DNA of 64,000 nucleotides, taken from the NCBI GenBank assembly GCA_037131755.1, contig JBAXQJ010000001.1:16176-80175 (forward strand), read 5' to 3'. The notes beneath the pieces were generated by a model. The model had not been told where the DNA came from, searched no databases, and worked only from the letters and a program-made list of their open reading frames with translations. Positions within the stretch are counted from its first letter, which is position 1. Every line of letters starts with the position of its first letter. Both the position numbers and the translations under genes were made by a program. Shown here piece by piece: positions 4,286-19,857 of the stretch. Source of the DNA: a bacterium. GTDB taxonomy: Bacteria; Patescibacteriota; Minisyncoccia; Phycocordibacterales; GWA1-40-21.

Positions 4286-4410
4286 TTTTGGCAGGAGTAT
4301 CTCCCTCGCCTTAAAATTTCTCGTCAGAAATTTTAGGCTGGGCACCGGCTCACGGTTTTTTCTACTGAAAAAACATCGTTCCGCCGTTCGATTCCTGCAC
4401 GCAAGCAAAA

Positions 4411-4611
4411 TTGTTTGCTTGCTCAAGAGCACAAATTTTAAAAGCGCCACCTGGCGCTTTTAAAATTTGTGCCCATCGACCGAACGCCACTCGATTGTGG
4501 GAAATAATAACTGAAGCGGCAAAATGCCTAATTGTTCGGAATGATTTACCGGCTAATGATAGCACACCTGTATTAGAGATGCCGCGGGACCAAACGGGCT
4601 TGGCGGCATAA
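4411..4611 (+). CDS. Small upstream ORF (66 aa) of the HTH-XRE module; conserved at the protein level with small ORFs upstream of the two other XRE paralogs
   Basis: ...KICAHRPNATRLWEIITEAAKCLIVRNDLPANDSTPVLEMPRDQTGLAA aligns with CAHQRDAPRMLDLIISTMQDHLKKGPADS... (ORF 45220-45423, minus) and with an unlisted frame at about 46440-46570, minus. Substitutions between the latter two copies are mostly synonymous. Confidence 0.35.
   Translation: MFACSRAQILKAPPGAFKICAHRPNATRLWEIITEAAKCLIVRNDLPANDSTPVLEMPRDQTGLAA
4429..4472. promoter_or_regulatory. 44-nt perfect palindrome (21-bp arms, 2-nt spacer) GCACAAATTTTAAAAGCGCCA-CC-TGGCGCTTTTAAAATTTGTGC; candidate operator/hairpin of the XRE module
   Basis: Read directly from the sequence. 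A second copy with identical outer arms and a compensatorily changed inner stem is at 46565-46616. A smaller hairpin GCAAGCAAA-ATTG-TTTGCTTGC lies at 4401-4422. Confidence 0.5.
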
Positions 4612-4678
4612 ACTTGCCGCTTTCGGCAAGTCCGTCCACCTTTTGTTATTTTTACCAATCCCTTAATCTTTAATCATC

Positions 4679-4948
4679 ATGAACAATATCAAAAACAATT
4701 TGCGAGAATATCGCTTGAAAGCCGGACTTCGTCAGGTGGACGTCGCCAGTCTGATCGGCTTGGATTTTGCCGACCGTCTATCCCGCTGGGAAAATGGTCA
4801 GGCCATGCCGAATGTTGTCAACCTATTCCACCTTGCCGCGATCTATAAAGTTACGCCTAAAGATTTGTATCAGGATCTACGGCGAAATATTGATGAACAG
4901 GCTCAAGCTGCTCACTCAGATGCTCTTATACGACGAATGTCACACTGA
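4679..4948 (+). CDS. HTH-XRE family transcriptional regulator (paralog 1 of 3)
   Basis: MNNIKNNLREYRLKAGLRQVDVASLIGLDFADRLSRWENGQAMPNVVNLFHLAAIYKVTPKDLYQDL has the XRE/Cro-like HTH. Roughly 55-60% identical to the proteins at 44823-45149 and 46036-46293. Confidence 0.8.
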   Translation: MNNIKNNLREYRLKAGLRQVDVASLIGLDFADRLSRWENGQAMPNVVNLFHLAAIYKVTPKDLYQDLRRNIDEQAQAAHSDALIRRMSH

Positions 4949-4950
4949 AC

Positions 4951-5382
4951 CTAGCCCGAGTATCCCCATGCTGTCTTGAGTATTTGATATTCAGCGGTGT
5001 AACCGTGCTCAAGAAGGCATTGTAAGTACACATGTCGTGGCGGGATATTGCTATAATAAGGTGTCGGCCCAGTTGATAAACCTCCTCCAGGCCCTGTTGA
5101 TAGTCCTCCCCCTGGGCCAGTTGAAAGCCCACCGCCCGGTCCAGTAGAAAGCCCACCGCCTGGTCCAGTAGAAAGACCGCCCTCAGGACCGGTAGATAGT
5201 CCACCTCCAGGGCCAGTAGACAAGCCACCGCCTGGACCTGTTGACATCCCTCCACCAGGACCAGTTGATGCACCACCGCCCGGACCTGTTGAAAGACCGC
5301 CCCCAGGACCTGTGGATAATCCGCCTTCAGGGCCGGTTGAACTGTTTCGCGGCCATCCTCTGTGTAATTGGTTGTTATTCAT
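4951..5382 (-). CDS. Gly/Pro-rich tandem-repeat protein ((STGPGGGL)n, about 12 copies)
   Basis: 143-aa ORF in which about 95 aa consist of an 8-aa repeat STGP(G/E)GG(L/A/M), with a non-repetitive C-terminus ...TPYYSNIPPRHVYLQCLLEHGYTAEYQILKTAWGYSG. Convergent with the XRE gene. Confidence 0.45.
   Translation of the reverse strand: MNNNQLHRGWPRNSSTGPEGGLSTGPGGGLSTGPGGGASTGPGGGMSTGPGGGLSTGPGGGLSTGPEGGLSTGPGGGLSTGPGGGLSTGPGGGLSTGPGGGLSTGPTPYYSNIPPRHVYLQCLLEHGYTAEYQILKTAWGYSG
5058..5340. repeat. 24-nt tandem DNA repeat (about 12 units) encoding the STGPGGGL repeats
   Basis: Repeated ccaccgcc(t/c)gg(a/t)cc(a/t)gt(a/t)ga(a/c)ag units are visible at about 5090-5340. Confidence 0.6.
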
Positions 5383-5608
5383 GTTTTTGAGTATACCACA
5401 GTGATATCAAATGCATCAATTTGTGATATCTACACACCGTAAGTCTTTGCCTTAAAAGATGTTTTGAATTCTGATGGTGATGTGGTGCTCTAGCAGTGTC
5501 GCATAATAGTGGCTGGGTTGATTCCGCCCATGACTGGCTGGTTTTGAGTTCCCGCTGACAGGTGTCTCTCCGCATTGACCAGAAGTGAATTCAGTATAGA
5601 ATTTAGAA

Positions 5609-6049
5609 ATGAATTCAAGCACCGCATCGCCATTAGGAACAGACTTTGCGCAAGAGCTATTCCTCCACATGCAAGACGCAATTAGTGATGGAACAAAACA
5701 AGCCTGCCGAATGGTTTGGGACGTCATCCAGCAGTTTATGATGGAACACTGGTTCTTCCTGATTGTAGGGCTGGTGATTTTGTTCTGGATTGCCATCATT
5801 AGATGGATCTCAACCGGACGATGGGGTATGTTCGCCAGCCTGCTCTATCATTGCCTGTATTTTGGGACCCTACTTGTTGCCACGTTGATATTTGGCCCCG
5901 AAATCTTCGCCAGTGATTATACAAAGCTGTGGCTCTTTATCCTTTACCTAGTCTGCTTTGGGCTTGTTGGATGGTTCATACGAGCTACGGGTATTCTCGG
6001 CTGCTTATATCCTGACGGGAGAAGTAAGATCAGACGCCCGCGATTCTAG
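5609..6049 (+). CDS. Hypothetical integral membrane protein
   Basis: 146 aa with three or four hydrophobic helices (WFFLIVGLVILFWIAII..., LLVATLIFGPEIF..., LFILYLVCFGLVGWFI). No recognisable family. Confidence 0.4.
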   Translation: MNSSTASPLGTDFAQELFLHMQDAISDGTKQACRMVWDVIQQFMMEHWFFLIVGLVILFWIAIIRWISTGRWGMFASLLYHCLYFGTLLVATLIFGPEIFASDYTKLWLFILYLVCFGLVGWFIRATGILGCLYPDGRSKIRRPRF

Positions 6050-6116
6050 GCGCCGTAAAACACTGCACTGTTATGTTTCATGATCTGCCGGCACTGCGAC
6101 CGAAGGCAGAACAGAA

Positions 6117-7364
6117 CTAGGCGGTTTTCTTCCTATTCTTCTTGTCGAGACTCAAGTGGTATGAATGAAATTCATCGTCATCACGTTCATTATCCAGATG
6201 CATACAACCACACGCCCGCCCTCTTCTATAAGGGCCGAATAATCTGGCAAACTCACCCTGAAATCTGTGAAATGTGTGCCAGTCTTTGCCTACACCCGAA
6301 TCAAATCCGTTAAATTCTTTCTGCCGTGGTGTTCGCCCATACTCGTCAAAAGCAGCGGAGGTGCCGTCCTTATTGCCGATGATAATTTGTCCACCATAGT
6401 CGACACCTCTGGGATCTGGCATGCACAAGTAACCATGTCCATAATTAAACCAGTCCGACTTGCTGACGTATCTCTCGGGATATAACCATTCTTTTTTGGC
6501 AGCCGCTATGAATTTGTAAGCTCTGCTTTTGATTATGAAGTTAATCTCTCTCACTTCCTGTTCTGATAAATATCTCATGGTCTGAATGTCGGTGATCTTC
6601 ATTATCGCGTCACGAAAAAAAGTTGGGTTTGGCCTCATTTTTAGACCATCCTGATATGGGTGCCTTAACCATGATAGATTTGTGAGGATTAGGACCTTGT
6701 TTTTCGATAAAGGGAAGATGGTATGGCTCGAATGGAATCTAATATCTGGGTCATTGTACTCACGGCACCATTGGGATCGTGGACCGCAATGGCGGTTATA
6801 TATCGTTACCGGGTGATCAGAAATGATGAACTTTGTCGCTGAGTTACCTGCATCGGCTATCAGCCAAATGGACTCCATCCATATAGCGCCATAAAGCTGT
6901 TGCCATCGAGTCATTAATGCCAGCACGTGGTTCTTATCATTAATACCACGCATATTTGCCTGATCTCTCAGCCATGTTAGTCCCTTTGGGGTGCGCAGTT
7001 TTTGTGTGCTCATATAGATGAGCAACTCCTTTATTGAATTTGTGCCATCCCACGGATGTGAGAACCTCTCGCACCACTCAACGGCAGTCTTACCCCTGGC
7101 ATCAATGTCTCCAAAGAAAAGCTTTTCGATATCTTTAGATTCAGCACCATGAAAATTCGCGGTGTATAAATCATCTTCGGCAAAACAATGCCTGAAGCCT
7201 ATTTTACGCACAGTCTTTCCGACGTGACTTGTGCTCTTGGAATCAAAATACATTGGTGGTTTTAGATTCAGATAATACAACTCGCTATCCGTTGATGGAT
7301 TTAACGAAAACCGTCTTTGATACCATACCGGGACATAATGATTGTTTTTATACTCACCAGACAT
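6117..7364 (-). CDS. DUF4238-like protein (uncharacterised family often found in defense islands)
   Basis: 415 aa. The N-terminus NHYVPVWYQRRFS matches the HYVPxFYLxxF signature of DUF4238. There is no other motif support. Confidence 0.45.
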   Translation of the reverse strand: MSGEYKNNHYVPVWYQRRFSLNPSTDSELYYLNLKPPMYFDSKSTSHVGKTVRKIGFRHCFAEDDLYTANFHGAESKDIEKLFFGDIDARGKTAVEWCERFSHPWDGTNSIKELLIYMSTQKLRTPKGLTWLRDQANMRGINDKNHVLALMTRWQQLYGAIWMESIWLIADAGNSATKFIISDHPVTIYNRHCGPRSQWCREYNDPDIRFHSSHTIFPLSKNKVLILTNLSWLRHPYQDGLKMRPNPTFFRDAIMKITDIQTMRYLSEQEVREINFIIKSRAYKFIAAAKKEWLYPERYVSKSDWFNYGHGYLCMPDPRGVDYGGQIIIGNKDGTSAAFDEYGRTPRQKEFNGFDSGVGKDWHTFHRFQGEFARLFGPYRRGRACGCMHLDNERDDDEFHSYHLSLDKKNRKKTA

Positions 7365-7615
7365 AGTGACAGTTTATCATAACACGATTGAATTAGCCTC
7401 CAGATACTTCTCCAGACCAACTCAACCAGATTCGAACCTTATCTGGATCAACAAGGCCGTGTGGTGGATCAAAGGAACAGTATGGGATAACAAAGAAGAC
7501 CGGTTAGCTATGCAAACAGTGTCAAAATATTCTTGTTCCTCAACAAACTGAGGAGCTTGTTGAAATTCACTATTAGCGCTCACATAAATTGAGTCACTGT
7601 GATTATACATCTTGA

Positions 7616-9367
7616 TCAACCACTGATCTGCAAAGAGCGAATGGACTCTCGCCCAAACCATTTCACAAGGATATCCATCGCCTTAGTATTAATTTTCTGA
7701 GTAAACAGGACGGCAAGGCGTTTTTTGGGACGAGAACAGGCCACGTAGAAAAGATTACGATTTCGCTCAAAAGATTCTTTCTTATCGACCGGGATTTTAA
7801 CAGGTGTTCCTGCCCATTCCAGAAATTGGTTATCGTTGTAAATGTTCCACCCGCGCCCGCACACAACGAGTACATTTTCAAACTCGGCTCCTTTGACCCC
7901 ATGTTTCGTTGAGAAAGGTGTCTCGTCATTAATGAACCGCGCAAGGTTGATAACTTCCTGATATGAAATGTCTCTCAATTTGCGAAGGCGGTCAATTGAG
8001 GTTGTTTCCTCGGTAGCCTCCTTCACAATTTGTTGCGCCTCGGCTAGTTCACGTTCCTTTCGTTCTACCGCCTCAGGAAGTCTTGGTCGTTTCGTCCGCC
8101 TTAAATAGTCAAGTACTGCCCCGATGTTCCCTGACTTACGCAATATGGCTAAATCATCCATGTCCTTAGACCACGACACTTTATCCTGGTGTGTACCTAT
8201 GCGAGGTGTCCGACTGCCCAATAACGCAAACATTTCACCATACTTCTTTTCAGAATAGGCTATGCATACAGGTTCCAGTATGTCTATAAAGAAAGCAATG
8301 TGATCATCTTCTTTTTTAACGAAAGATTCTTTATGAGAAAATACTTGGGCTAATGAACTGTAACCTTGTTCGGCGGCAAGAACATTATGAGTCAACATGA
8401 GGATTTTGGTTGTACCTGCTGAAAAGTCCCATCCCTCGTTGGTGAGAAGTTCTTTTGCAGCCTCAAGGTGCGAATGTGCAGAATCAGCCGGTAAATCATC
8501 TGCCCAGTGCTGTCCAGTTCGGCGTGTGCCAACCCACTCATTAGTGTGGAATACTGCAACACTACCTTCCGCCGTTGGGTTTTCCACTTTTTGTGGTAAG
8601 TCTGGACGCATGCGATTAAGGCAATCAACAATAACCGGGGCAGAACGAAAATTAGCCTCTTTACCAATTGTTTCCAGTTTCGGATGGTCAATCAATCCGC
8701 ACCCATCCCCATAAATCTTCTGCCAGTGGTCACCAAAGAATCCTATCAGCGGCCCTTTCTCTGTATCCAAAAAATGTTTTATTAACGCTGCCGCGATCTT
8801 TTCATCGGTATCTTGATATTCGTCAATAAAAAGATAAGGGTAACGATCCGACACGAGATCTCGAAACTTAATTTCATTCAAGAGCTGAATTGTAAGGGCC
8901 AGCACATCGTTGTGATGAAGAGACACATGTTTGTCGTCTATCCCCGGATACCCCAGTTCATAGTTAATTGAACGATTCCCAACATCGCCAATATCCACAA
9001 GTCTTTCGGGCCAATTTTTAAGATTCGGTATCTGCTGACGTAAGAATGGCTGAAAGTCCTTGATTAGCGACCAACAAAAAGCATGAATAGTAGAACAATA
9101 AATCACCGGATGCCGGTCGGTCCGAGAATTGATTTCGTTAGTGGCTACATTAGTGAAGGTAATACATGCTACTTGCTGCTTTCTGCGCAACAGAGACTGC
9201 CCATGCTTTTCTATAATATATTTAAGGGATTTGATTAAAGAATAGGTTTTGCCGGCACCGGCCCCAGCTTCAAGACGAAAACTCTTCCCCTTATCAATGC
9301 AAGAGAAGACTCGATCAAGCGCTTCCTTGGAGGCAAGCTCTGCTGGGTTAGGTGTGATTTCAGACAT
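7616..9367 (-). CDS. gajB: UvrD/PcrA-like superfamily 1 helicase (Gabija GajB-like)
   Basis: Walker A LEAGAGAGKTYSLI, helicase motif II YLFIDEYQDTDEKI, and a C-terminal HGVKGAEFENVLVV...LFYVACSRPKKRL. It overlaps the upstream OLD-family gene by 8 nt, indicating an operon. Confidence 0.75.
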   Translation of the reverse strand: MSEITPNPAELASKEALDRVFSCIDKGKSFRLEAGAGAGKTYSLIKSLKYIIEKHGQSLLRRKQQVACITFTNVATNEINSRTDRHPVIYCSTIHAFCWSLIKDFQPFLRQQIPNLKNWPERLVDIGDVGNRSINYELGYPGIDDKHVSLHHNDVLALTIQLLNEIKFRDLVSDRYPYLFIDEYQDTDEKIAAALIKHFLDTEKGPLIGFFGDHWQKIYGDGCGLIDHPKLETIGKEANFRSAPVIVDCLNRMRPDLPQKVENPTAEGSVAVFHTNEWVGTRRTGQHWADDLPADSAHSHLEAAKELLTNEGWDFSAGTTKILMLTHNVLAAEQGYSSLAQVFSHKESFVKKEDDHIAFFIDILEPVCIAYSEKKYGEMFALLGSRTPRIGTHQDKVSWSKDMDDLAILRKSGNIGAVLDYLRRTKRPRLPEAVERKERELAEAQQIVKEATEETTSIDRLRKLRDISYQEVINLARFINDETPFSTKHGVKGAEFENVLVVCGRGWNIYNDNQFLEWAGTPVKIPVDKKESFERNRNLFYVACSRPKKRLAVLFTQKINTKAMDILVKWFGRESIRSLQISG

Positions 9368-11450
9368 TTGGTTTTGTCGATTCCGCTGGAGTGACTGGAG
9401 CTGATGGAGAAATCACAACAGGTTTTGAGGGTGGGGACAGATGGCGTGTTCCCTCAGCGAGCCAATTCAAACCCTCTGCTATATATCGTGGTACTATCCA
9501 TCCTGTCTGATTAACACCATATTCCAATGCGAAATCCGACTTTTTGGTAACACTTTCCGCTTCAGTATATGTCACATCCTCTATTGTGGCTAGCGGCTCC
9601 GTATCGAATTTGAATAATTTCAGGTTTGCCAAAATAAATGATTGCTCAAAACTTCGTCCGCATGGGTCGCCGACCTTTTCAGGCAATTCATAGGCTAAAC
9701 GAATGAAGTCATGAGTTTTCTCCGCATCTGTTTTTACTGCGAGTGCGCCTGGACTGATCGTCTTGTCATTGAACCAGTCTTTAATACAGGCATTACTCGT
9801 GTGAGTGCCTCCCGACACTTTACAAGCGATATATTTCTTTTTGTCATTCTGTATTGTCGAATCCAAATCTGTAATGACCAATGTTCGCAGTTCAAGAAAC
9901 TTAAGAAAATCAAAGAAAAGGTGGGCGTAAGCTCCCCCTACTTCCACCACCGAAATGTATTGGCTAGATAGGGGGCGCATAGTCGCAGACATTTTCGCAT
10001 CGACCTGCGGAATCATTAATGGCAGCAATATTCGTTCAGTGGTACCCTCGATAAAAATCGCCTTATCAGCAAACAGTAGGTCGCAGCGCGTCAGGGTCAT
10101 ATACTTATGGACAAATTCACGAGCCGCGGGCGCGGTAGAACTGAGTCCTTGTTGTAAATCTTTTATGACTGTGGAGCGGATGCTGGGCGAATGTTCATCC
10201 GATGTAGCCAAACAATAACGCATAGAATCAAATGGCGCCTTATTGGCGAGATGCGATGAGTGTGTCGTCACAACAAATTGAACAGGCCACGGAATTCCTT
10301 TGTTAAATGTGTCCGCAAAAACTTTGGCAATTTCTGCAAGTTTACAAATAAATACTTCCTGCATTTGCGGATGAAGGTGGGCTTCGGGTTCCTCAATAAA
10401 CACAAGATGTGTTACTGGCGCAGTTGGCAGAGTTTTAAAAGACTTAAAAAACTCCAGCAGTTTCAACAGAATATAGATTAGATTGCGTGCGCCCAAGCCA
10501 TTGTATGCTTCGGGCAGGTTGATCCCGTTTACGCCTGCATAATGCACTTTAGTGTGATCAGTTAGAAGGCGCTTAACATCTAATGTTGTTTCGGTAATTA
10601 AACCAGGATCGTTGAAACCTGGATATCCAAACAATGAAAATGCCGGAATCAAACCAGCAAGTTCAGTGTTAAAACCCTCGTCTATATTCTTTTGAATATC
10701 TTTTACTGCTGCCTCAAGTTTAAGAGCAATATCACGATCCTTCGAGTCGGCTGAGTCGGCTGTGGCATTTGCGAGAAGTCCTTCGAGGATTTTCCCCAAA
10801 ACATCCTTGTCACGGTGGCTAATATCATCCAAGCCGCGCTGCGCATTGATGAATCCACTTTGTATTAGAGCGCGGAGGGTAGACCAATCTACAGGCTTTT
10901 GGTTACTGGAATCATGAGGATCCTCAGCAAACACATTTGATGTGTAACACTTCGAGAGCCTTTCTTTAATACTTCGGAAAAAATCGATTTTGGTTAGTTT
11001 CTTGGCAGCAACTTCCCCAGTCGAAAGCTCCGCGAATAAAGAGTCAATTTCGCCAGATTTGAGCTCGTATCGGATAACGATGCAGGTATCTGTGCAATCG
11101 GGGTTCAAATCAATGATGAATTCCGAAAGCGGGCCAAAACTCGGGGTGCCTTTTTCATAGCGTACTGTTAGTCGAACTTCAATTACAGGGAGTGATGCGC
11201 GAATCTTGTCTTCGTCGACGCTAGTGGTCTTTAATATAAATGCCGTCCAGAAGTCCTCATGCGATGCAAGTGAGAAGTCCTCAAGTTGGAATGTGGGCGA
11301 TTTGTCCTGCAACAGACGTCGAAATAATTCAGTGAGCGAGGTCTTGCCACTATTGTTACGTCCTACAATGACAGTCGTTTGCTTTTCGAAGCAAAGCTGA
11401 ACTTTCCTCAATAATCGGAAGTTTTTGATTTCGACTTTATGAATATGCAT
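9360..11450 (-). CDS. gajA: OLD-family ATP-dependent endonuclease (ABC-type ATPase plus TOPRIM; Gabija GajA-like)
   Basis: N-terminal IKNFRLLRKVQLCFEKQTTVIVGRNNSGKTSL (AAA_21 P-loop) and VFIEEPEAHLHPQMQ (Walker B/D-loop), then a C-terminal TOPRIM with AIFIEGTTERILLP and LVITDLDS. A class 2 OLD protein followed by a UvrD helicase is the Gabija architecture. Confidence 0.75.
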   Translation of the reverse strand: MHIHKVEIKNFRLLRKVQLCFEKQTTVIVGRNNSGKTSLTELFRRLLQDKSPTFQLEDFSLASHEDFWTAFILKTTSVDEDKIRASLPVIEVRLTVRYEKGTPSFGPLSEFIIDLNPDCTDTCIVIRYELKSGEIDSLFAELSTGEVAAKKLTKIDFFRSIKERLSKCYTSNVFAEDPHDSSNQKPVDWSTLRALIQSGFINAQRGLDDISHRDKDVLGKILEGLLANATADSADSKDRDIALKLEAAVKDIQKNIDEGFNTELAGLIPAFSLFGYPGFNDPGLITETTLDVKRLLTDHTKVHYAGVNGINLPEAYNGLGARNLIYILLKLLEFFKSFKTLPTAPVTHLVFIEEPEAHLHPQMQEVFICKLAEIAKVFADTFNKGIPWPVQFVVTTHSSHLANKAPFDSMRYCLATSDEHSPSIRSTVIKDLQQGLSSTAPAAREFVHKYMTLTRCDLLFADKAIFIEGTTERILLPLMIPQVDAKMSATMRPLSSQYISVVEVGGAYAHLFFDFLKFLELRTLVITDLDSTIQNDKKKYIACKVSGGTHTSNACIKDWFNDKTISPGALAVKTDAEKTHDFIRLAYELPEKVGDPCGRSFEQSFILANLKLFKFDTEPLATIEDVTYTEAESVTKKSDFALEYGVNQTGWIVPRYIAEGLNWLAEGTRHLSPPSKPVVISPSAPVTPAESTKPNV

Positions 11451-11668
11451 GGTGTTTTGCTTTACTTTCTTTTAATAATAACCCGGCATTTGAATTGAGA
11501 CAAGCGATAGATGTCGGAGAGTTCAACCTTCCCTTGCTGAACTTGTTGCAGATGGAGGGGTGGCGTGACTACATTTCGACTAAGAAAGCGATTCGGTGGC
11601 GAGTTTACCAACATAGACGATAGATTTTGATAGGGATGATGAAAACAATCCTTTCGCCCTTTTAGACT

Positions 11669-14587
11669 TTGCCCTATACACCATTGCCGCGATTCAATAT
11701 CCTGAGGGGCATGTCATCTATTTCATGGAACGAGGTACGCGACAGGGCGCTTAAGTTCTCACGAAAGTGGGCTGAAGAAACCTCCGAAAGGGCGGAGGCC
11801 AAGACGTTTTGGGACCAGTTCTTCAACGTGTTTGGCGTTGAACGCCGTGCCGTTGCTAGTTTTGAGGAACCCGTCAGGAACCTGAAGGGGAAATACAACT
11901 ACATTGACCTTTTTTGGAAAGGGACGGTTCTGGCGGAGCACAAATCCCGTGGCAAGGATTTGGATAAGGCAGGCTCGCAAGCGTTCTCATACATCCAGGA
12001 CCTTGCCCGTGATGGCCGGATGGACGAAATCCCCCGCTATATCATCGTTTCAGATTTCGACAAGATTTACCTCCATGATTTGGACCCCGATGACCAGCGT
12101 GACCTTCAACTTTTCGACCAATGGCACGTCAAGACAACAGAAATCACTCTGAAGGACCTCCACAATCATGTCAGGGCGTTCGCGTTCATCAAGGGTGAAA
12201 AGGCTGTTCGTCTTGATCCTGAAGACCCGGCCAACCAGAAGGCAACCGACATCATGGGGGAACTGCATGACACCCTCAAGGATGGCGGCTATGAGGGACA
12301 CAATCTTGAACGGTTTTTGGTGCGGGTACTATTTTGCCTGTTTGCCGATGATACGGGACTGTTCGACCAGCCCCATTGTTTTCAATCGTACATAAAAAAC
12401 CACACCAGGGAAGACGGGTCGGACCTGGGAATGAACCTTGCACAGGTATTCGAGATACTGGATACCCACGAAGACAAGCGACAGAAGAATTTGGATGATG
12501 ATCTTACCGTCTTTCCCTATGTTAACGGCGGGTTGTTCCAAGAACGTCTTCCGTTTGTGCATTTCAACAGGGCTCAAAGGGAAGCCTTGCTTGCCTGCTG
12601 CGACTTCAATTGGTCGAAAATTTCCCCGGCCGTGTTCGGGTCTCTTTTTCAGTCGGTCATGGAACCTAAGGAAAGACGGCAATCTGGTGGGCACTACACC
12701 AGCGAGCGGGACATTATGAAGGTAATACGCTCATTGTTCCTTGATGACCTTCGGGCGGAATTCGGGCTGATTGAGCGCGATAAGTCAACCCGTAGGAATA
12801 CAAGGCTTGAGGAGTTTCATAGAAAACTTGCGAACCTTCGTTTCTTTGACCCCGCATGTGGTTGCGGGAACTTTTTGGTCATCACATACAGGGAATTACG
12901 CCTCCTTGAAATAGAAGTTCTCAAGGAACTGCACGATATTGAAGTGCCAAACGAACTGCACAAAAAAACCCAGTTGGTGACTGACATTCAGCATCTTTCT
13001 CTCTTGGATGTTGATCAGATGTATGGAATCGAAATCAGCGAATGGCCTGCCAGGATTGCCGAAGTAGCCATGTGGTTGCTTGACCACCAGATGAACCAGC
13101 TGTTAAGCGAAGCTTTCGGCCAGTATTACATCAAACTTCCATTAAGGGCTTCGCCGCACATTGTCTCCGAAAATGCCCTTCGTTTGGACTGGAAGAAAGT
13201 CCTGCCTCCCGAGAAATGTAGTTTCATCCTTGGCAACCCGCCGTTCGTCGGGAAACACCTGATGGACAAGGACCAGATGGCTGATATGGTTGCAGTATGG
13301 GGCGACGTTGATGGCTCTGGTATTCTTGATTACGTCACCGCATGGTACAGGAAGGCCGCCGAATACATCAAGGGTACGGACATACTTGTCGGGTTCGTCT
13401 CCACGAATTCGATATGCCAAGGGGAACAGGTTGGTATCCTTTGGAACACGTTGTTCCAGCGATATGGCCTTAAAATATTATTCGGACACCGTACGTTCAC
13501 TTGGGAAAGCGAAGCCAGGGGAAAGGCCCACGTCCACGTGGTCATTGTCGGCTTTTATAATTCCGCCAACCCATTAAAAATGACAAAAAGGATTTACGAA
13601 TACCACAAGTCCACGGACAAGATAACAGTTGAACATGTCAAAAACATCAGCCCGTATCTGATTGAGGGTTCAGACCTTGCCGTCATGGCTCAAACCAACC
13701 CAATATGCGAAGTCCCAGCCTGCGTATACGGCAACAAGCCAACCGATGGCGGCCATTTGATCATCGAAGAAGAAGACCGGGAGTCCTTCATCAGGGAAAA
13801 TCCTGACGCAAAGAAATACATTAAGAAATTGTTATGTGCTGAAGAATACCTACATTCTGTACCCAGGTGGTGCTTGTGGCTTGTCGGGGCCTCACCAGCC
13901 GACATCAAGAACATACCAGGATTGAGGAAACGAATTGAAGCGGTGAAGACTTTCCGCCTCAACAGCAAAAAGGTTCCCACGCAAAAGAAGGCCAGTGAGC
14001 CAACCCTGTTCGCGGAAATCCGTCAGCCGAAAGGCCGGTACATTGTCATTCCACAGCACTCATCGGAATCAAGGCCTTACATTCCTTTTGGCTATTTTGA
14101 CCCCGACGTGATTATTCATAACAGTTGCACCGCCGTTCCTGATGTGTCGTTGTTCCATTTTGGGGTGATGTCATCGGCAATCCATATGGCGTGGGTCAAG
14201 TTGGTATGCGGACGCATAAAATCCGATTACCGTTATTCGAACACTCTCGTTTATAACAACTTCCCTTGGCCAGAAAAAACAGCAGACAAGCAAAGGTCAG
14301 CCGTGGAAATTGCAGCACAGAAGGTGTTGGATGCCCGCAAGGCCTTTCCTGATTCGACACTTGCCGACCTGTATGACCCCGTGGCGATGCCGCCATTGCT
14401 GGCGAAGGCCCATGCGGAATTAGATAAAGCTGTAGACAGGTGTTACTGTCTAGAATCTTTCCCCACGGACCGGCACCGGGTGGAGTTTCTTTTTGCGATG
14501 TACGAGAAGATCGCTAACCCGCTGGCCATCGGGGGCAAGGAAAAGAAAGCTAAGAAGAAACCGAAAAGTCAGACTAATCATTCTTAA
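11669..14587 (+). CDS. MmeI-family Type IIL/IIG restriction-modification enzyme (fused nuclease, N6-adenine methyltransferase and target-recognition domain)
   Basis: N-terminal MmeI-like nuclease region TFWDQFFNVFGVERR...YIDLFWKGTVLAEHKSRGKDLDKA with an intact D...EHK motif. SAM motif I LRFFDPACGCGNFLV and motif IV ILGNPPFVG (gamma-class N6-A MTase). 972 aa, typical of the family. Confidence 0.75.
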   Translation: MPYTPLPRFNILRGMSSISWNEVRDRALKFSRKWAEETSERAEAKTFWDQFFNVFGVERRAVASFEEPVRNLKGKYNYIDLFWKGTVLAEHKSRGKDLDKAGSQAFSYIQDLARDGRMDEIPRYIIVSDFDKIYLHDLDPDDQRDLQLFDQWHVKTTEITLKDLHNHVRAFAFIKGEKAVRLDPEDPANQKATDIMGELHDTLKDGGYEGHNLERFLVRVLFCLFADDTGLFDQPHCFQSYIKNHTREDGSDLGMNLAQVFEILDTHEDKRQKNLDDDLTVFPYVNGGLFQERLPFVHFNRAQREALLACCDFNWSKISPAVFGSLFQSVMEPKERRQSGGHYTSERDIMKVIRSLFLDDLRAEFGLIERDKSTRRNTRLEEFHRKLANLRFFDPACGCGNFLVITYRELRLLEIEVLKELHDIEVPNELHKKTQLVTDIQHLSLLDVDQMYGIEISEWPARIAEVAMWLLDHQMNQLLSEAFGQYYIKLPLRASPHIVSENALRLDWKKVLPPEKCSFILGNPPFVGKHLMDKDQMADMVAVWGDVDGSGILDYVTAWYRKAAEYIKGTDILVGFVSTNSICQGEQVGILWNTLFQRYGLKILFGHRTFTWESEARGKAHVHVVIVGFYNSANPLKMTKRIYEYHKSTDKITVEHVKNISPYLIEGSDLAVMAQTNPICEVPACVYGNKPTDGGHLIIEEEDRESFIRENPDAKKYIKKLLCAEEYLHSVPRWCLWLVGASPADIKNIPGLRKRIEAVKTFRLNSKKVPTQKKASEPTLFAEIRQPKGRYIVIPQHSSESRPYIPFGYFDPDVIIHNSCTAVPDVSLFHFGVMSSAIHMAWVKLVCGRIKSDYRYSNTLVYNNFPWPEKTADKQRSAVEIAAQKVLDARKAFPDSTLADLYDPVAMPPLLAKAHAELDKAVDRCYCLESFPTDRHRVEFLFAMYEKIANPLAIGGKEKKAKKKPKSQTNHS

Positions 14588-15116
14588 AAATTTCGGTTTT
14601 GATCAATTCGGACACATCGCGCATCCTATCAACGTACAGTAACCCATTCAGGTGGTCAATTTCATGTGCAATTACTCTTGCCAAGAAGCCTTCGGCTTTG
14701 AGTGCTCGATTTGAACCAAAACGGTCTTGATATGAAATGCTAATTTTAGTTCTTCTTTCAACTTCGCCCGCATAATCAGGCAAGGACATACATGATTCCT
14801 TTTTTTTATCCTTTTTCCCGCTAGTTTCCAACACTTTTGGATTTACCAGAATTAACGTATCCTGCGATTTGTTTTTGTTTATATTTATAATCGTAAGCTT
14901 TAGTCGGATGCCAACCTGTGGTGCTGCTAAACCTATTGCGATTTTATGAGCTATAAAGGTCTCAACCAAATCATTAACTATCTCTTGAAATACCGGGCCA
15001 AAATCCAAGACCTCTTCACAGGCTACTCTAAGAGGCGGCTCTTTTGAACCGATTTCTTCAAGCTTGAGTTGTACTAGGGGTAAAATGCTCATGATAATGA
15101 TTAATTCATAATCCAC
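14574..15116 (-). CDS. def: Peptide deformylase
   Basis: GLAAPQVGIRLKL (motif 1), ESCMSLP (EGCLS-like motif 2) and HEIDHLNG (HEXXH motif 3). The 3' end is convergent with and overlaps MmeI by 14 nt. The real start may be the internal MSILPL (15092). Confidence 0.8.
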   Translation of the reverse strand: MDYELIIIMSILPLVQLKLEEIGSKEPPLRVACEEVLDFGPVFQEIVNDLVETFIAHKIAIGLAAPQVGIRLKLTIININKNKSQDTLILVNPKVLETSGKKDKKKESCMSLPDYAGEVERRTKISISYQDRFGSNRALKAEGFLARVIAHEIDHLNGLLYVDRMRDVSELIKTEIFKND

Positions 15117-15898
15117 TTTATTTCGTAGTGATATAGCAACTTAGGATTCGGAACAACCCATGATACTTCTCCATGCTTGTCCAAGGGTTTGGTGAACGAA
15201 TCCAGCGGCTTCCGCGATCCTATAGCGCTTGAAGTCTCACAAGTAACTTCTCTAACACCAAAACTTAATGGAAGTGATACATTAAGCTTAAGAGAATCTG
15301 TGGGTTCTTCCATCGTCGCTGAACAAAATGGAACAGCAACCTTCTCCAAGTCCTCAAGTTCCCATATAGCTTCGGTGTTGATACTTTCGCCCTTTTTTAA
15401 GGTTTTCTGTAGCCGAATTTCGTACGCATTCCAAATGTTTCGTTTCACAGTCTCAACTATATTATGTTCAGGAATACCACTTCTGAGAACTACTTTTCCT
15501 CTGCCTGTCCAGCGATATATATCTCTGTATACATCAAGACCGTTCTTTAAAGATTTAATGCATGTTCTCTTCTTATAACGCATATGAGTCTTGTCCACAT
15601 ACTCATAAGTTATTTCCCGTTCCAGAATTTTAAAGTCAAAGTCCAGTCGCGGAAAATTCGGACGGTGTCGGTCATGTTTCCTGTATATTGCCAACAATGC
15701 AAATGATATTGCAGTGCCAAACAGAATACCAATTTGGTATTTATACGGATCAAGAGATGTTATCTTGAGTGCGAGTATCTTCGAGCTCAACAAAGTTACA
15801 GCATATGCAAGAATGATCGCTAGACTATATTTAACAATATCATATAGCCCCTTCTTCAGAAAGTCCCGCCTTAATGACTCAATAAAATTATCGGCCAT
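15101..15898 (-). CDS. Hypothetical 2-TM membrane protein with a C-terminal soluble domain, overlapping and co-oriented with def
   Basis: 265 aa with two N-terminal TM helices (LAIILAYAVTLLSS..., IGILFGTAISFALLAIY) and then about 190 aa with no recognisable motif. Its stop overlaps the longest def start by 16 nt. Confidence 0.5.
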   Translation of the reverse strand: MADNFIESLRRDFLKKGLYDIVKYSLAIILAYAVTLLSSKILALKITSLDPYKYQIGILFGTAISFALLAIYRKHDRHRPNFPRLDFDFKILEREITYEYVDKTHMRYKKRTCIKSLKNGLDVYRDIYRWTGRGKVVLRSGIPEHNIVETVKRNIWNAYEIRLQKTLKKGESINTEAIWELEDLEKVAVPFCSATMEEPTDSLKLNVSLPLSFGVREVTCETSSAIGSRKPLDSFTKPLDKHGEVSWVVPNPKLLYHYEIKWIMN

Positions 15899-16154
15899 TT
15901 TTAACCTAATCTTTCTGTATCGACGGTACGTATAAAAATAAACAATCCCATCGTTTATTGTGACAAGTCACTACACGTAAGTGATCTTTTTATGATGAAT
16001 ATATACTTAACCCATATTTCAATAATATCAAAATAGATGATCAATGTCAAATACTAGACAAGAGTTTTGCGTTTACGAAACGCACGTATTATGGAGGATT
16101 TTATTGACTCCCTGACCGACTTACCCCACATAATACAGGCAAATGGAGGTGTTT

Positions 16155-16715
16155 ATGTTCAGCAAATCAAAACCTACGCAAGCCAACGTCCTCAGCCACT
16201 GGTACACTCCTGTTCCGAACTTCAGCATGTCCACCAAGGAATTCTACGACAAGGTGGAGAGAGAGCTTGGAACACAACAAGTGCCTGGCCTTAAAATATC
16301 CCGCCCTGAGCTTTCAGAAGGTGGGCTGTTTGCGGCCAAGCGTCAATATCTGCGCCTGAAACGGGATGACGTGTTGTTTGACATCTGTGCCTGTCCATTT
16401 GGTGTCAATTACTTCTTCTCCTGCCGTTTTGCAGCCACACCTCCTACTGGTCTCAAAGTATTGATTTCAAAGATCATCAACCTGATTCTGGAAAAGCTGA
16501 ATCTACGACTTGTCGATACATATCATAAGGAAGACACCCGTCTTATGTATATGACCGTGGTGGAAGGTGTCGTCAAGAAACTGGTGGAACAGGAAACAGC
16601 GGCCAAAGGCATTAAACTCTTGGATGAATACGAGCATGCTCCAATCCTGGGGGATCTGTATAAGTCGAAAAGAAAGATCTTAGACCAGAACCAAGTTGAG
16701 GTTATTGAGGCATAA
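16155..16715 (+). CDS. Hypothetical protein, first gene of a two-gene cassette with the large TraD/HerA-like ATPase
   Basis: About 186 aa (second ATG after a GGAGGTG Shine-Dalgarno). Its stop is 4 nt before the next start. No recognisable family (...CACPFGVNYFFSCRFAATPP...). Confidence 0.5.
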   Translation: MFSKSKPTQANVLSHWYTPVPNFSMSTKEFYDKVERELGTQQVPGLKISRPELSEGGLFAAKRQYLRLKRDDVLFDICACPFGVNYFFSCRFAATPPTGLKVLISKIINLILEKLNLRLVDTYHKEDTRLMYMTVVEGVVKKLVEQETAAKGIKLLDEYEHAPILGDLYKSKRKILDQNQVEVIEA

Positions 16716-16718
16716 CCA

Positions 16719-19700
16719 ATGGCCTCAATTGATGAGAAGTTCAGTGAGCAGTTCTATCACTGGGAACGGCGAGGGCGGGGCTGGCAGGTTTTTGATGAGC
16801 CAGTTTCACCTGAACCGCCTTTCCGTCCCTTCTATATATCCCCGGATGCCCCCATCATTGATGACGGGGCTCGACCGACTGTTCTGAGTGCCTGGGCGAA
16901 TCGATTGAAAGGTTTGGTTGGCGGAGGTGGACAATCGGTTGCTGTCACCAAAGCTTTACCCTCTGATATTGAAGAGCCCGAACCGCAATCACTGATCCGG
17001 GATGAATTGATTGAACTCCAAGTCGTCCTACCGGTGAATCTGAATATCCGGAGGGATGATTTCGAAGAATTCCTCTTGGCAATGTCGCTTTGTAATGAGC
17101 CGATTACCTTTGAAGTCCTCGGCCTATCCTCCCATATCTCCGTGCAATTGGTTGCACATCCCTCTGATGAGCAAATGGTCATTCAGAGATTGAAGGCCTT
17201 CTTCCCTGAAGCCAGTTTCTTGCCTCGGAAAAACGCACTGATTGATGCTTGGGTGAAAGAGCCAGACAGTTATACCGGGGTGGTTGAATTCGGTTTAGCC
17301 AGACCTTTTATGTTTCCTCTGGCAACTCGGCGAGTGGACCCCTTTGTCGGCATCATTGGGGCGTTGTCGGAACTGACAAATGATGAGTTGGGGTTATTCC
17401 AAGTCATCTTCCAGCCAGTGCAAGCTCCATGGGCAGAAAGCATGCTGGATGCCATTACAGACCATCAAGGCGGGGCTTTGTTTGTTAATGTCCCAGAATT
17501 AACAACAGCTGCCAAAGAAAAAGTATCCAGCCCCATCTATGCCGCCGTCGTGCGTATTGCTACGCAATCCCCATCAATTGAGCGGGCTTGGGAGATTGCC
17601 CGTAATCTATCAGGAGCCCTCACGGTCTTTGCTCATCCCCATGGTAATGAACTAATTCCGCTCCGTAATGATGACTATCCCTTTGATCTGCATATTGAAG
17701 ATGTCTTGCGGCGGCAATCTCGGCGTACCGGGATGCTCCTAAACAGCACGGAATTGGTCGGCTTCGTTCATTTACCATCGGTTGATGTTCGCTCGTCTAA
17801 ACTGGAACGATATACAGTTAAAACCAAACGGGCTCCGCAATCAGTCCGTAAGGATGAAGGGCTATATTTAGGGGACAATTTACATAATGGGGAGGCGGTG
17901 TCAGTCGCCCTGTCACCGGAGCAACGTGTCCGGCATACGCATGTGATTGGTGCTAGTGGTACCGGCAAGTCCACCCTGCTATTCAATCTCATTCGTCAAG
18001 ATATTGAGAATGGTGATGGGGTGGCGGTGCTAGACCCTCATGGCGATCTGGTGGACCAGCTTTTGGGTATTATCCCTGAAAATCGCATTAATGATGTCAT
18101 TTTGCTTGATCCCTCCGATGAGGAATACTCCATCGGCTTCAACATCCTATCCGCCCATTCAGAACTCGAAAAGAACCTGCTGGCCTCAGACTTGGTTTCC
18201 GTCTTCCAGCGCTTGTCCTCCAGTTGGGGTGATCAAATGGGGTCAGTGTTGAATAATGCGATATTGGCTTTCCTCGAAAGCAGCAAGGGTGGGACACTGG
18301 CGGATCTCCGTCGTTTCCTTTTAGAGTCAGATTTTCGGAATGCTTTCCTGGAAACGGTCAATGATCCTGAAGTGGTGTATTACTGGCGCAAGGTCTTCTC
18401 ACAACTGTCCGGTAACAAGTCCATCGGGCCAGTGTTGACTAGATTGGATACTTTTCTCGGGCGGAAACCAATTCGCTATATGGTCAGACAGTCCACCAAC
18501 CGGCTTGATTTCGGGAACATCCTCGATACCGGCAAAATCTTCTTGGCCAAGCTACCGCAAGGTATCGTTGGTCGGGAGAATTCATATTTGCTAGGTACGC
18601 TCCTTGTTTCCAAATTCCAGCAATTAGCAATGGCGCGGCAAAAGCAGGTGGCCGCCAGCCGTAAAGACTTCTGGCTCTATATTGATGAGTTCCATAATTT
18701 TATTACGCCGTCCATGGCTGAAATCTTATCTGGCGCTCGCAAATATCGACTTGGCCTAACTCTGGCCCATCAGGAATTGCGCCAATTACAAAGGGACTCT
18801 GAAGTGGCCAGTGCAGTCTTGTCAAATGCTGGCACACGGATTTGTTTCCGGGTTGGTGATGATGATGCTAAGAAATTAGCTGATGGTTTTTCGCTCTTTG
18901 AAGCTCAAGACTTGCGGAATCTGGACACTGGTAAAGCGGTCTGTCGAGTTGAGCGTAGTGATTATGACTTCAATCTGACCGTCCCTCTACCGGATCAGCT
19001 TGATGAGGAAGCCATGGAGGATCGCCGCCACTCCGTTATCCTGGCCTCTCGCTCCAAATATGCCACCTCTTGCTCAGAGCTTGAAAAAGCTTTCAAGGAG
19101 GCCGCAGAGACTAGACCGGTTATACCGGAACCAAAGAAAAAAGCTCCATTTGTAGTTGTAAAAAGCAAAGGACCGGAACCTACACCGTTACCGATAGAGA
19201 CTCCGCAACCAGTCATTCCACTTGAGAATATTCCGGCTCCTCGACAGACAACCGCCGATCTAGGCCGAGGGGGTGCCCAACATCAGGCGATACAGCAAAG
19301 ACTCAAGGTAGAAGCCGAAGCCGTCGGCTTTCGTGTCATTGTTGAGAAGCCAACCCCTGACGGCGGCAGCATTGATCTAGTCTTGAGTCGGGGCGGAATA
19401 TCCTTGGCTTGTGAAATTGAAGTGACTACTTCAATGGATCATAAGGTGAAGAATGTTTCTAAATGCCTCAAGGGTGGGTATCAGCAAGTCATTGTTATCA
19501 CCCAACAGGAAGGCGATTTGAAGAAACTGAAGATTGCGGTCGATAGCAGTTTGGGAGAAGAAAAGGCCCAGCCTGTCCTATACTTCCTTCCGGATCAGTT
19601 TATTGAATATATCCAGACGATACCGCAAGAGGTCGTGGTGCCGAAACCAGATCAACCGAAAATCCGGCGTGGTTTCAAAGTGCGAACCAACCACATTGCA

Positions 19701-19790
19701 TTATCTCCCCAGGAAATGCAGGCACGAGAGGGTGCGGCGATTGCTGCAATTGCCGAAGCGATGAAAAACGGTTCAACGCAATTTGCCTAA
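16719..19790 (+). CDS. Large P-loop NTPase of the TraD/VirD4/HerA (DUF87-like, FtsK-HerA superfamily) type, with an about 380-aa N-terminal unknown region and a C-terminal putative PD-(D/E)xK nuclease-like domain
   Basis: Walker A HTHVIGASGTGKSTLLFNLI followed by AVLDPHGDL (the coupling-protein/HerA signature). Walker B-like FWLYIDEFHNFITPS. C-terminus GFRVIVEKPTPDGGSIDLVLSRGGISLACEIEVTT resembles a restriction-endonuclease-like D...ExE core. 1023 aa. Confidence 0.55.
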   Translation: MASIDEKFSEQFYHWERRGRGWQVFDEPVSPEPPFRPFYISPDAPIIDDGARPTVLSAWANRLKGLVGGGGQSVAVTKALPSDIEEPEPQSLIRDELIELQVVLPVNLNIRRDDFEEFLLAMSLCNEPITFEVLGLSSHISVQLVAHPSDEQMVIQRLKAFFPEASFLPRKNALIDAWVKEPDSYTGVVEFGLARPFMFPLATRRVDPFVGIIGALSELTNDELGLFQVIFQPVQAPWAESMLDAITDHQGGALFVNVPELTTAAKEKVSSPIYAAVVRIATQSPSIERAWEIARNLSGALTVFAHPHGNELIPLRNDDYPFDLHIEDVLRRQSRRTGMLLNSTELVGFVHLPSVDVRSSKLERYTVKTKRAPQSVRKDEGLYLGDNLHNGEAVSVALSPEQRVRHTHVIGASGTGKSTLLFNLIRQDIENGDGVAVLDPHGDLVDQLLGIIPENRINDVILLDPSDEEYSIGFNILSAHSELEKNLLASDLVSVFQRLSSSWGDQMGSVLNNAILAFLESSKGGTLADLRRFLLESDFRNAFLETVNDPEVVYYWRKVFSQLSGNKSIGPVLTRLDTFLGRKPIRYMVRQSTNRLDFGNILDTGKIFLAKLPQGIVGRENSYLLGTLLVSKFQQLAMARQKQVAASRKDFWLYIDEFHNFITPSMAEILSGARKYRLGLTLAHQELRQLQRDSEVASAVLSNAGTRICFRVGDDDAKKLADGFSLFEAQDLRNLDTGKAVCRVERSDYDFNLTVPLPDQLDEEAMEDRRHSVILASRSKYATSCSELEKAFKEAAETRPVIPEPKKKAPFVVVKSKGPEPTPLPIETPQPVIPLENIPAPRQTTADLGRGGAQHQAIQQRLKVEAEAVGFRVIVEKPTPDGGSIDLVLSRGGISLACEIEVTTSMDHKVKNVSKCLKGGYQQVIVITQQEGDLKKLKIAVDSSLGEEKAQPVLYFLPDQFIEYIQTIPQEVVVPKPDQPKIRRGFKVRTNHIALSPQEMQAREGAAIAAIAEAMKNGSTQFA

Positions 19791-19857
19791 CATGACGAAC
19801 TGAGCAAAACAGGTATACACCCTGCAATTCTTATTAGGCGGATTAAGATTTACTGAC

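Follow-up and report, generated by a model that had tools for sequence, protein, structure and literature searches.

Genomic islands of the Islander type (PMC4383910) have an intact tRNA or tmRNA gene on one side and a repeat of its 3' end on the other, stand in tandem arrays and carry cargo that varies between strains. In the ssrA islands of Dehalococcoides (PMC3146451), insertion at the tRNA-like 3' end of the tmRNA gene is linked to a large serine recombinase (LSR), the CcrB-like DsiB, tandem islands are separated by short direct repeats, and many of them have no integration module. In Myxococcus phage Mx8 (integrase IntP) and the fusellovirus SSV1, the attachment site of the element (attP) lies within the integrase coding sequence, and integration alters or splits the gene (PMC6070905, PMC4383910). 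Here we describe three units, c1, c2 and c3, in a 64,000-nt stretch of a patescibacterial genome (contig JBAXQJ010000001.1, positions 16,176 to 80,175; hereafter the window), each composed of what appears to be the orphaned 3' end of an LSR gene, a hairpin and a small helix-turn-helix (HTH) gene of the XRE type. The Dehalococcoides islands are the nearest serine-recombinase case, and Mx8 IntP and SSV1 the nearest in-gene-site case. The target of Mx8 is reportedly a tRNA gene. Whereas Islander-type islands usually have a tyrosine integrase and a repeat that is typically tens of nucleotides long and reaches into the T-loop or anticodon loop, the repeat here covers 6-9 nt at the very 3' end and the recombinase is an LSR. 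The Dehalococcoides islands keep an intact integrase gene beside the left attachment site (attL), with a 20-bp repeat, but here the site lies within the recombinase open reading frame (ORF) and orphan tails mark the units. The Mx8 and SSV1 enzymes are tyrosine recombinases, whereas the family considered here is of the serine type (Resolvase domain).

Each unit probably forms the distal end, on the attL side, of a cassette or integrative element that has inserted at the 3' extremity of a tRNA-Arg gene, with the recombination site in the LSR reading frame. The units lie at 4250-4960 (plus strand), 44810-45480 and 46020-46700 (both minus strand), and their alignment reveals common blocks 5' of three XRE genes, all with a Pfam HTH_3 domain, so that the three paralogous units recognised in an earlier sequence-only reading of the window stand. 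Their starts could be refined to 4468 (c1), 45372 (c2) and 46581 (c3), and the conserved stretch upstream of the XRE gene spans ~150-290 nt in each. Read on the XRE strand, a unit runs from a core, TTGTGCCC, through an open frame of ~45 codons ending at a conserved TAA, then a GC hairpin and a further 30-100 nt, to the XRE gene. The features concerned, and the tRNA genes they face, are as follows.

4468..4611, plus strand: c1 orphan LSR tail (the 'small ORF'), assigned by alignment with c2 and c3; in-frame translation CAHRPNATRLWEIITE..., the most diverged of the three
4612..4631, plus strand: c1 post-stop hairpin, ACTTGCCG-CTTT-CGGCAAGT; derived from the region between the LSR and XRE genes; fold -8.9 kcal/mol, z -4.9
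4679..4948, plus strand: XRE1, 89 aa, Pfam HTH_3, E 4.4e-9
45220..45372, minus strand: c2 orphan LSR tail; match to the LSR C-terminus profile, E 1.6e-4, from profile position 80; core TTGTGCCC at 45366-45373
44823..45149, minus strand: XRE2, 108 aa, Pfam HTH_3
46429..46581, minus strand: c3 orphan LSR tail; match to the LSR C-terminus profile, E 1.7e-5, from profile position 81
46404..46423, minus strand: c3 post-stop hairpin, ACGTGCC-TCTTCC-GGCACGT; fold -10.1 kcal/mol, z -3.9
46036..46293, minus strand: XRE3, 85 aa, Pfam HTH_3, E 6e-11
35909..35981, minus strand: tRNA-Arg(gcg), right-side (attR) target of the c1 segment; its plus strand starts TGTGCTCTTGG
43507..43579, plus strand: tRNA-Arg(tct), target of the c3-c2 array on the attR side; the core is found as its 3' end, GGGCACA

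The hairpin behind the c2 tail is degenerate by folding. Two sequence blocks are conserved in the units, TTGTGCCCATCRACSGRAY (19 nt) and, ahead of the XRE start, CCTTTGTGACTTTYACCAAT (20 nt), each found three times in the window (0.19 and 0.01 occurrences expected, respectively). The claim that the leaders are more conserved than the XRE genes stood in part. It applies to the small-ORF part of c2 and c3 (77% nucleotide identity, against 60% amino acid identity of the XRE proteins), whereas the rest of the leader is only ~45% identical between them, owing to a 65-nt insert in c3, and the trend is reversed between c1 and c3 (58% nucleotide identity in the small-ORF part, 69% amino acid identity in the XRE protein).

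Judged by homology, this leader is the orphaned last ~150 nt of an LSR gene, followed by its post-stop hairpin and the XRE promoter region, and the small ORF appears as an LSR C-terminal tail separated from its gene rather than as an independent conserved gene. Loci used for comparison are given L numbers, and close XRE relatives were retrieved from genomes and metagenomes. A motif of ~30 nt precedes the XRE gene by ~250-450 nt, on the strand of that gene, in L001, L002, L005 (twice), L006 (twice), L008 and L010, and in L007 it recurs also 3' of the XRE gene, where it opens a further unit. When the small-ORF frame is read through the motif, a conserved peptide results, C-x-P/H-x-R-D-x-P-R-M/T-W/L-D-x-I-I. 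In L010, motif and small ORF together form the in-frame C-terminus of a complete 522-aa LSR ORF, and in L007 the peptide ends an LSR ORF that is truncated by the contig start and followed by the XRE gene. The L010 LSR carries the Resolvase, Recombinase and zinc-ribbon set, as do the proteins P0013-P0132. At E <= 1e-20 it had more than 5,700 recorded LSR matches, the best 120 of which share the C-terminus ...F.EVANRF.N.NGAPYRDIPRTWD.LL..L.... A profile built solely from these 120 C-termini, run against 1,922 six-frame segments of the window, gave the c3 and c2 tails as its sole significant matches, both alignments opening at positions 80-81, that is, at the N-G-A-P residues.

In intact relatives, a homologous XRE gene lies directly behind the LSR gene. 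The order in L072, whose LSR carries Resolvase, Recombinase and Zn_ribbon_recom domains, and in L098 is a small protein that we call LYP (motif L-Y-P-x-L-(S/T)-E-(K/E)-E-L), the LSR, a hairpin of the TTGCC..GGCAA type, a pyrimidine-rich stretch and the XRE start, the hairpin behind these LSR genes being the same as that of the units. The proposal that the leader has a regulatory function did not hold, since the leader is homologous to the 3' coding end of LSR genes and stands in frame with LSR ORFs in relatives. A search of the databases with a profile of 12 tails returned four proteins only, as the query is short and the database huge. Viral contigs gave no match when scanned with the XRE alignment; with the LSR alignment they gave three loci, none with a tRNA, and the one inspected (L081) has an intact tail.

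The homology of the units opens abruptly at TTGTGC(CC), a sequence that is also the 3' end of tRNA-Arg. Over all loci compared, 11 independent orphan tails start at profile positions 78-83, including those of loci that lack a tRNA context of the Patescibacteria type (L075, L098, L099). In L005, two LSR-body fragments end at the same point (...ACATCTGGATGTGC) and run straight into two minus-strand tRNA genes, tRNA-Arg(cct) and tRNA-Gly(ccc), at their 3' ends; the junction with the longer fragment is interrupted by the contig end. In the window, the direct repeat TTGTGCCC occurs at 43574-43581 in tRNA-Arg(tct), at 45366-45373 in c2 and at 46575-46582 in c3, and TTGTGC occurs at 4467-4472 in c1 and at 35908-35913 in tRNA-Arg(gcg); at 6-9 nt, the repeat of the tRNA 3' end is short. 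Read on the XRE strand, tRNA-Arg(tct) closes the c3-c2 array; it begins TTGTGCCCTCGG, with a core identical to those of c2 and c3, and c1 faces tRNA-Arg(gcg), beginning TTGTGCTCTTGG, at a distance of 31.4 kb. Comparison of attL (AATTTGTGC-CCATCG) with attR (TGGTTGTGC-TCTTGG) at c1 confines the crossover to TTGTGC. Elsewhere the core is a different one: in L002, TTGTAGCCCT is found at the tail and at the adjacent tRNA-Glu alike, and the L006 array is closed by tRNA-Arg(cct). A core that varies with the target tRNA is what would be expected of a crossover region. Both tRNA-Arg genes of the window are intact and stand at one boundary with their 3' ends facing the island, as is the case for tRNA-gene islands, and the tail starts at positions 78-83, together with the two LSR bodies fused to tRNAs, correspond to an in-gene attachment site of the Mx8/SSV type.

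Two of the units are bordered by long palindromes.

4429..4472, no strand: c1 palindrome, perfect; 21-nt arms by sequence, of which RNAfold pairs 20; its last 6 nt, TTGTGC (4467-4472), are the recombination core
46575..46626, no strand: c3 palindrome, perfect, with 22-nt arms; the tail-side arm has a duplicated GGGCACA

Both fold at -23 kcal/mol (z ~ -10), and sequence and folds agree with the earlier description of perfect palindromes with identical outer arms and differing, still complementary inner arms. The 15-nt outer arm, GCACAAATTTTAAAA, is common to the two and is present nowhere else in the window; no palindrome is found at c2. An inverted-repeat scan showed that the last 11 nt of tRNA-His (50793-50866) lie within a 26-bp perfect palindrome (50856-50912), built from the tRNA 3' end, an A/T-rich stretch and a GC stem, and the c1 and c3 palindromes are built alike, with the tRNA-Arg 3' end GGGCACA in their tail-side arms. 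The distal arm of c1, moreover, extends as CAAGAGCACA (4424-4433), the 3' end of tRNA-Arg(gcg); in this orientation relative to the tRNA, the only other copy of the 10-mer is in tRNA-Arg(gcg) itself, and its reverse complement occurs once more at 7230. Judged from these sequences, the palindromes are the native trailer hairpins of two tRNA-Arg genes (gcg for c1, tct for c3), displaced by the insertions. Such an origin would explain why they are seen only at the outermost units, why their inner arms differ and yet remain complementary (two different trailer hairpins), and why the sequence is missing from related loci: the long palindrome is in none of these except L077, a contig of the same population that contains c1. 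Their interpretation as an operator or cruciform site thus gives way to a trailer origin, and a generic terminator found throughout the genome, the counter-explanation offered by the sequence-only reading, is recovered in spirit only, as the equivalent trailer hairpin of tRNA-His.

The trailers have some peculiarities of their own. A tRNA trailer hairpin can hold an inverted copy of the 3' end of its own tRNA, as in tRNA-His, be it a terminator, a processing signal or a scar. Upstream of the c1 palindrome, at 4387-4433, there is an inverted partial copy of the 3' half of tRNA-Arg(gcg), consisting of GTTCGATTCCTGC, a 25-nt insert with a 9-bp hairpin (GCAAGCAAA/TTTGCTTGC) and CAAGAGCACA. In tRNA-Arg(gcg), the acceptor stem contains a C3-A70 mismatch (5' GCCCTTG, 3' CAAGAGC), and that of its ortholog in the related genome of L079 (5' GCTCTTG, 3' CAGGGGC) has two G-U pairs; the acceptor strands look swapped between the window and L079, as if element DNA had replaced the 3' ends.

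The c3 and c2 units together form a 3.0-kb island at tRNA-Arg(tct), and one of its cassettes is found in a second context. L079 contains a close copy of the c3 cassette, comprising the tail, the XRE gene (86% protein identity), the gene for a 153-aa protein and a non-coding right end. The two copies are collinear from core to core, with no recombinase inside, and they differ in what follows: the right end joins tRNA-Arg(gcg) at TGTGCCCC in L079 and the c2 tail at TGTGCCC in the window. At the other site, the c1 unit is the far edge of a 31.4-kb segment that ends at tRNA-Arg(gcg). From rpsT to this tRNA gene the distance is 31.6 kb in the window, against ~2 kb in the related genome (L078, L079), with matching flanks on both sides, and a 1.2-kb cassette occupies in L078/L079 the place where the window has 31 kb. 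The parts of the cassettes and of the segment are these.

45549..46010, minus strand: c3 cargo, 153-aa protein, with no Pfam, NCBIfam or PADLOC family
45373..45548, minus strand: right end of the c3 cassette, non-coding; holds the terminator of the 153-aa gene and a further ~130 nt as far as the core; better conserved than any other part of the cassette
43739..44536, minus strand: c2 cargo, trypsin-like serine protease, Pfam Trypsin_2, E 1.2e-15
4949..35908, no strand: segment from c1 to tRNA-Arg(gcg), ~31 kb, not in the related genome (synteny with L078 and L079; Pfam)

A Pfam scan of the neighbours agrees with the earlier observation that the downstream cargo differs among the copies. The description of a mobile regulatory, toxin-antitoxin-like or defence-like cassette family is sustained as regards a mobile family with variable cargo and toxin-type genes in relatives, and not as regards a regulatory leader. 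The right end of the c3 cassette is ~97% identical to that of L079 (by eye), against 79-87% for the coding parts; it has no Rfam match and a fold z of -1.0, so a structured RNA was not detected there, and its opposite strand holds a 20-aa ORF (MKNGLGVYYWYACGRKPLFG). This right end could be a recombinase-binding arm, a small RNA or a small peptide gene.

From these observations we propose the following model. The intact element would carry, in this order, the LYP protein, the LSR, the GC hairpin, the XRE regulator and the cargo, with a recombination site inside the LSR frame at the N-G/C-A-P codons, whose sequence in this lineage, (T)TGTGCCC, matches the tRNA 3' end. Crossing over with the end of the tRNA gene, which the LSR itself would catalyse, would open the element at this in-gene site and split the LSR gene, as indicated mainly by L005; the last ~45 LSR codons, the hairpin, the XRE gene and the cargo would pass to the far boundary, adjoining the old tRNA trailer hairpin, and the LSR body would come to adjoin the tRNA. 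Repeated insertions would yield tandem arrays. In this way, the array would read old trailer, c3 tail-XRE3-153-aa gene, c2 tail-XRE2-protease and tRNA-Arg(tct), and the second site old trailer, c1 tail-XRE1, 31 kb of other sequence and tRNA-Arg(gcg). As the LSR bodies are gone, the window units would be non-autonomous, and cassettes without an LSR presumably move with an LSR supplied in trans. The data suggest that the LSR family recombines within its own coding sequence.

The XRE genes are under strong purifying selection and are maintained. The ratio of nonsynonymous to synonymous substitution rates (dN/dS) is ~0.04 in the closest pair (c3 and L079) and 0.09-0.10 in two other measurable pairs, and it is ~0.4 for the tails in all measured pairs, the weaker constraint expected of a sequence that was for part of its history LSR-coding and for part a remnant. 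The small ORF is in frame everywhere and ends at a conserved TAA. The sequence-only reading was right that changes are mostly synonymous in the 29-aa stretch that it quoted; over the ORF as a whole, dN/dS is ~0.4. The XRE proteins are most likely repressor-type regulators of the cassette, kept by selection. Their genes probably have a promoter of their own just behind the hairpin: the XRE3 start is preceded, at 7 nt, by a promoter-like site, TTTGCA-17-TAAAAT, although the scan did not rise above chance, and comparable hexamers precede XRE1 and XRE2 by eye. As a lead only, this suggests XRE mRNAs with a short 5' leader or none, and the position of the site between hairpin and XRE3 start would probably leave the tail outside the XRE mRNA. 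Rfam searches, at gathering and at E-value thresholds, returned tRNAs and noise only. As an XRE operator the post-tail hairpin was discarded, because hairpin likeness tracks the tails (c2 close to c3) and not the XRE recognition helices (identical in c1 and c3).

Type II toxin-antitoxin modules place an antitoxin HTH gene of the XRE, HigA or MqsA type beside a toxin gene. It is possible, if clearly short of probable, that the XRE gene and the gene after it form a pair of this kind, or a defence pair, that stabilises the cassette, a notion compatible with insertion of the units through an in-gene site. In some relatives a small XRE gene indeed closely precedes a toxin-type gene (PemK/MazF 6 nt after the XRE gene in L006, NYN nucleases after it in L005 and L076), the 153-aa gene starts 25 nt after XRE3, and the XRE proteins have weak matches, below the family cut-offs, to the MqsA antitoxin, the RstR and DicA repressors and restriction-modification control proteins. 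Against this stand the lack of any toxin-family partner in the window, the 153-aa protein having no such match, the lack of a co-directional partner at c1, and the 286 nt between XRE2 and the protease gene; in intact elements, furthermore, the XRE gene belongs to the conserved recombinase module and not to the variable cargo. A single-sequence structure model of the 153-aa protein was unusable, with a predicted local distance difference test (pLDDT) score of 35.

Several observations weigh against insertion through an in-gene LSR site. The 64-kb window holds no LSR body or fragment apart from the last ~45 codons, and no set of Resolvase, Recombinase and zinc-ribbon domains is present there, so that nothing in the window shows recombinase activity; the c1 tail, taken alone, is too diverged for a significant LSR-profile match. 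The best 120 LSRs all have intact tails, and the proposed splitting of the gene on integration is indicated by the two L005 junctions, one of them interrupted by a contig end; none of the 120 ends in a tRNA-encoded peptide, which is as expected of a ranking that favours full-length matches. Neither empty-site nor excised variants appeared among contigs of the same population, whose layout is the same at the c1 site wherever they reach it and at the c3-c2 site in the only two contigs that span it. A peptide deformylase gene (14574-15116) lies inside the 31-kb segment, which may for this reason be composite rather than one element. The c3 tail shares 77% identity with the c2 tail and 64% with that of the L079 ortholog of its cassette, a relation that would call for an extra assumption, such as gene conversion between the tandem copies; the same process would account for the impression of a leader more conserved than its gene. 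Finally, an ungapped scan of 10 reconstructed attP sites for dyad symmetry at the core performed no better than shuffles. LSR attachment sites are usually ~40-50 bp long, with imperfect dyad symmetry about a 2-bp crossover.

The lack of a symmetry signal would fit the N-G-A-P codons being a passive target, that is, a secondary attachment site which mimics the tRNA 3' end and serves some other tRNA-targeting integrase, for instance a tyrosine one, as could be argued also from the identity of the core with tRNA 3' ends and from the fact that tRNA sites are usually used by tyrosine integrases and rarely reported for serine integrases (PMC7192596). We regard this as unlikely. Neither the islands nor the small cassettes showed a tyrosine integrase, and some of the cassettes, at 1-1.2 kb, are too small to hold one; the LSR is the sole recombinase consistently linked to the junctions; and attP normally lies at or near the integrase gene, with Mx8 and SSV as precedents for a site within it (PMC6070905, PMC4383910).

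Ordinary decay, in which the units would be random deletion remnants of prophages or of integrative and conjugative elements, with the tail spared by its proximity to the XRE promoter and no special site in the gene, is somewhat less likely still. Although the window has no LSR body and remnants elsewhere vary in length (~320 nt in L008, ~450 nt in L076, ~200 nt in L005), chance deletion would hardly place 11 independent tail starts within the same 2-6 codons in several phyla-level contexts, make the breakpoint equal the adjacent tRNA 3' end and vary with it, fuse two LSR bodies to tRNAs at the same point, and give the c3 cassette identical ends in two contexts.

The least likely alternative takes the ~300 nt for a cis-regulatory leader with a conserved small ORF (an attenuator or third component) and the palindrome for an XRE-dimer operator or cruciform site: an in-frame ORF with a conserved TAA just before the hairpin and dN/dS < 1, its annotation by NCBI as a hypothetical protein in c3 (41 aa, covering part of the tail), and perfect palindromes unique to c1 and c3 speak for it, but the ORF, along with the preceding 30 nt, shows homology to LSR C-termini and is read in frame within complete LSRs of relatives, ACT stands in place of the supposed start codon in L006B (TTG in the next codon) and L008 (no canonical start nearby), Rfam gives no match, the long palindrome is missing at c2 and related loci and has the build of a tRNA trailer hairpin, and the promoter-like site of c3 lies between hairpin and XRE start.

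Insertion through an in-gene LSR site thus remains our preferred reading, and some loci invite comparison with further systems. Outside Patescibacteria, L075 (10001-12950), L098 (10001-13080) and L099 (10001-16014) have an intact LSR gene followed on the same strand, within 1.3-4.4 kb, by one or two orphan tails; no tRNA lies within 10 kb, and the layout resembles that of cassettes inserted at the recombinase's own 3' end. On paper, these loci are like integrons, with an array of small cassettes, each with a copy of the recombination site, downstream of the recombinase gene. However, the tyrosine recombinase IntI, attI, attC hairpin sites and promoterless cassettes of integrons were not found here, and the cassettes, unlike those of integrons, bring their own XRE regulator, a promoter-like site and a copy of the recombinase 3' end, so the likeness is limited to the array layout. 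An attC-like reading of the motif (GTTRRRY) was rejected, as the match is inconsistent across copies. Tycheposons of Prochlorococcus (bioRxiv 10.1101/2020.12.28.424599) also target tRNA genes and form variable islands in streamlined genomes, a minority of them with an LSR, but they are mostly tyrosine recombinase elements with partial tRNA copies, and no in-gene attachment site has been described for them. The C-terminus of another LSR, P0130, shows a duplicated tail motif, ...RPRTLDIPRTWNRIL..., which may be a scar of recombination at an in-gene site.

The LYP gene has left a possible trace in the window as well.

44672..44835, plus strand: 'LYP' gene remnant, frameshifted; translation ...FSDLSDEKLEEVEERLEEHVRVAMETYERI, compared with LHELYPYLTEKELAEVEGTFERYLTLVLRIFERLE in L072, a likeness seen by eye, with no statistic

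In the relatives, the LYP gene lies antisense between tail and XRE gene in L006 and L007 (probably also in L001 and L002) and upstream of the LSR gene in L010, L072 and L075; L098 and L099 have small ORFs at this position. The protein belongs to no Pfam or NCBIfam family and is a candidate recombinase partner or directionality factor.

The segment behind c1 contains, at 7616-35970, a dense defence and mobility region with a UvrD helicase and an OLD-family AAA_15/TOPRIM protein (Gabija-like), an MmeI-type restriction-modification enzyme, a TrwB/VirD4-like ATPase, ABC-3C components, a 2,245-aa RHS protein with a metallopeptidase toxin tip and a 1,276-aa TSP3/Calx-beta surface protein. No integrase domain was found in the island ORFs scanned, and of a recombinase only the orphan 3' tails are left. 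The ORF of the ABC-3C middle component (Pfam MC3, 35491-35970) overlaps tRNA-Arg(gcg) by ~60 nt on the opposite strand, and its true stop, or the right end of the island, may lie earlier. At the other end, convergent with XRE1, a PGGGLST-repeat protein is encoded at 4951-5382 (minus strand); it has 143 aa here and 191 aa on the same-population contig L090, which indicates that the repeat number varies. Contigs often break within repeats: in independent assemblies of this population, L087 and L089 end near window position 46360, and L094 and L097 end ~32 nt after rpsT. These breaks, in the c3 leader and after rpsT, would fit either an assembly interrupted by repeats or heterogeneity of the population.

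Islands at tRNA genes are routine; what is unusual here is the enzyme class (LSR), the site in the enzyme's own reading frame and a footprint that can be searched for. The authors of a 2020 survey knew of no report in which serine integrases use t(m)RNA genes (PMC7192596). In the literature, which we covered incompletely and which leaves novelty unproven, no serine recombinase turned up that acts at tRNA genes through an in-gene site, and an LSR of this kind, with tRNA targets and the attachment site in the LSR gene itself, seems not to have been described. If confirmed, the present case would add serine integrases with short, tRNA-derived natural targets. We tentatively entertain a wider picture, which we hold to be possible rather than probable: that this LSR family, with its more than 5,700 members in public data, uses its in-gene site for an integron-like capture, in which cassettes without an LSR bring a replacement tail and usually an XRE gene, the LSR is kept intact, older tails are pushed downstream and tRNA 3' ends are the chromosomal landing sites, and that this might be one of the main ways in which the reduced genomes of Patescibacteria shuffle defence and toxin genes.

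From the point of view of annotation, small conserved ORFs 5' of XRE genes can be recombinase remnants and should be treated with caution. The footprint, an orphan tail with an XRE gene, is easy to search and is seen beyond Patescibacteria too (L075, L098, L099). If confirmed, it would provide a simple marker with which to delimit mobile cassettes in metagenome-assembled genomes, where they are poorly charted.

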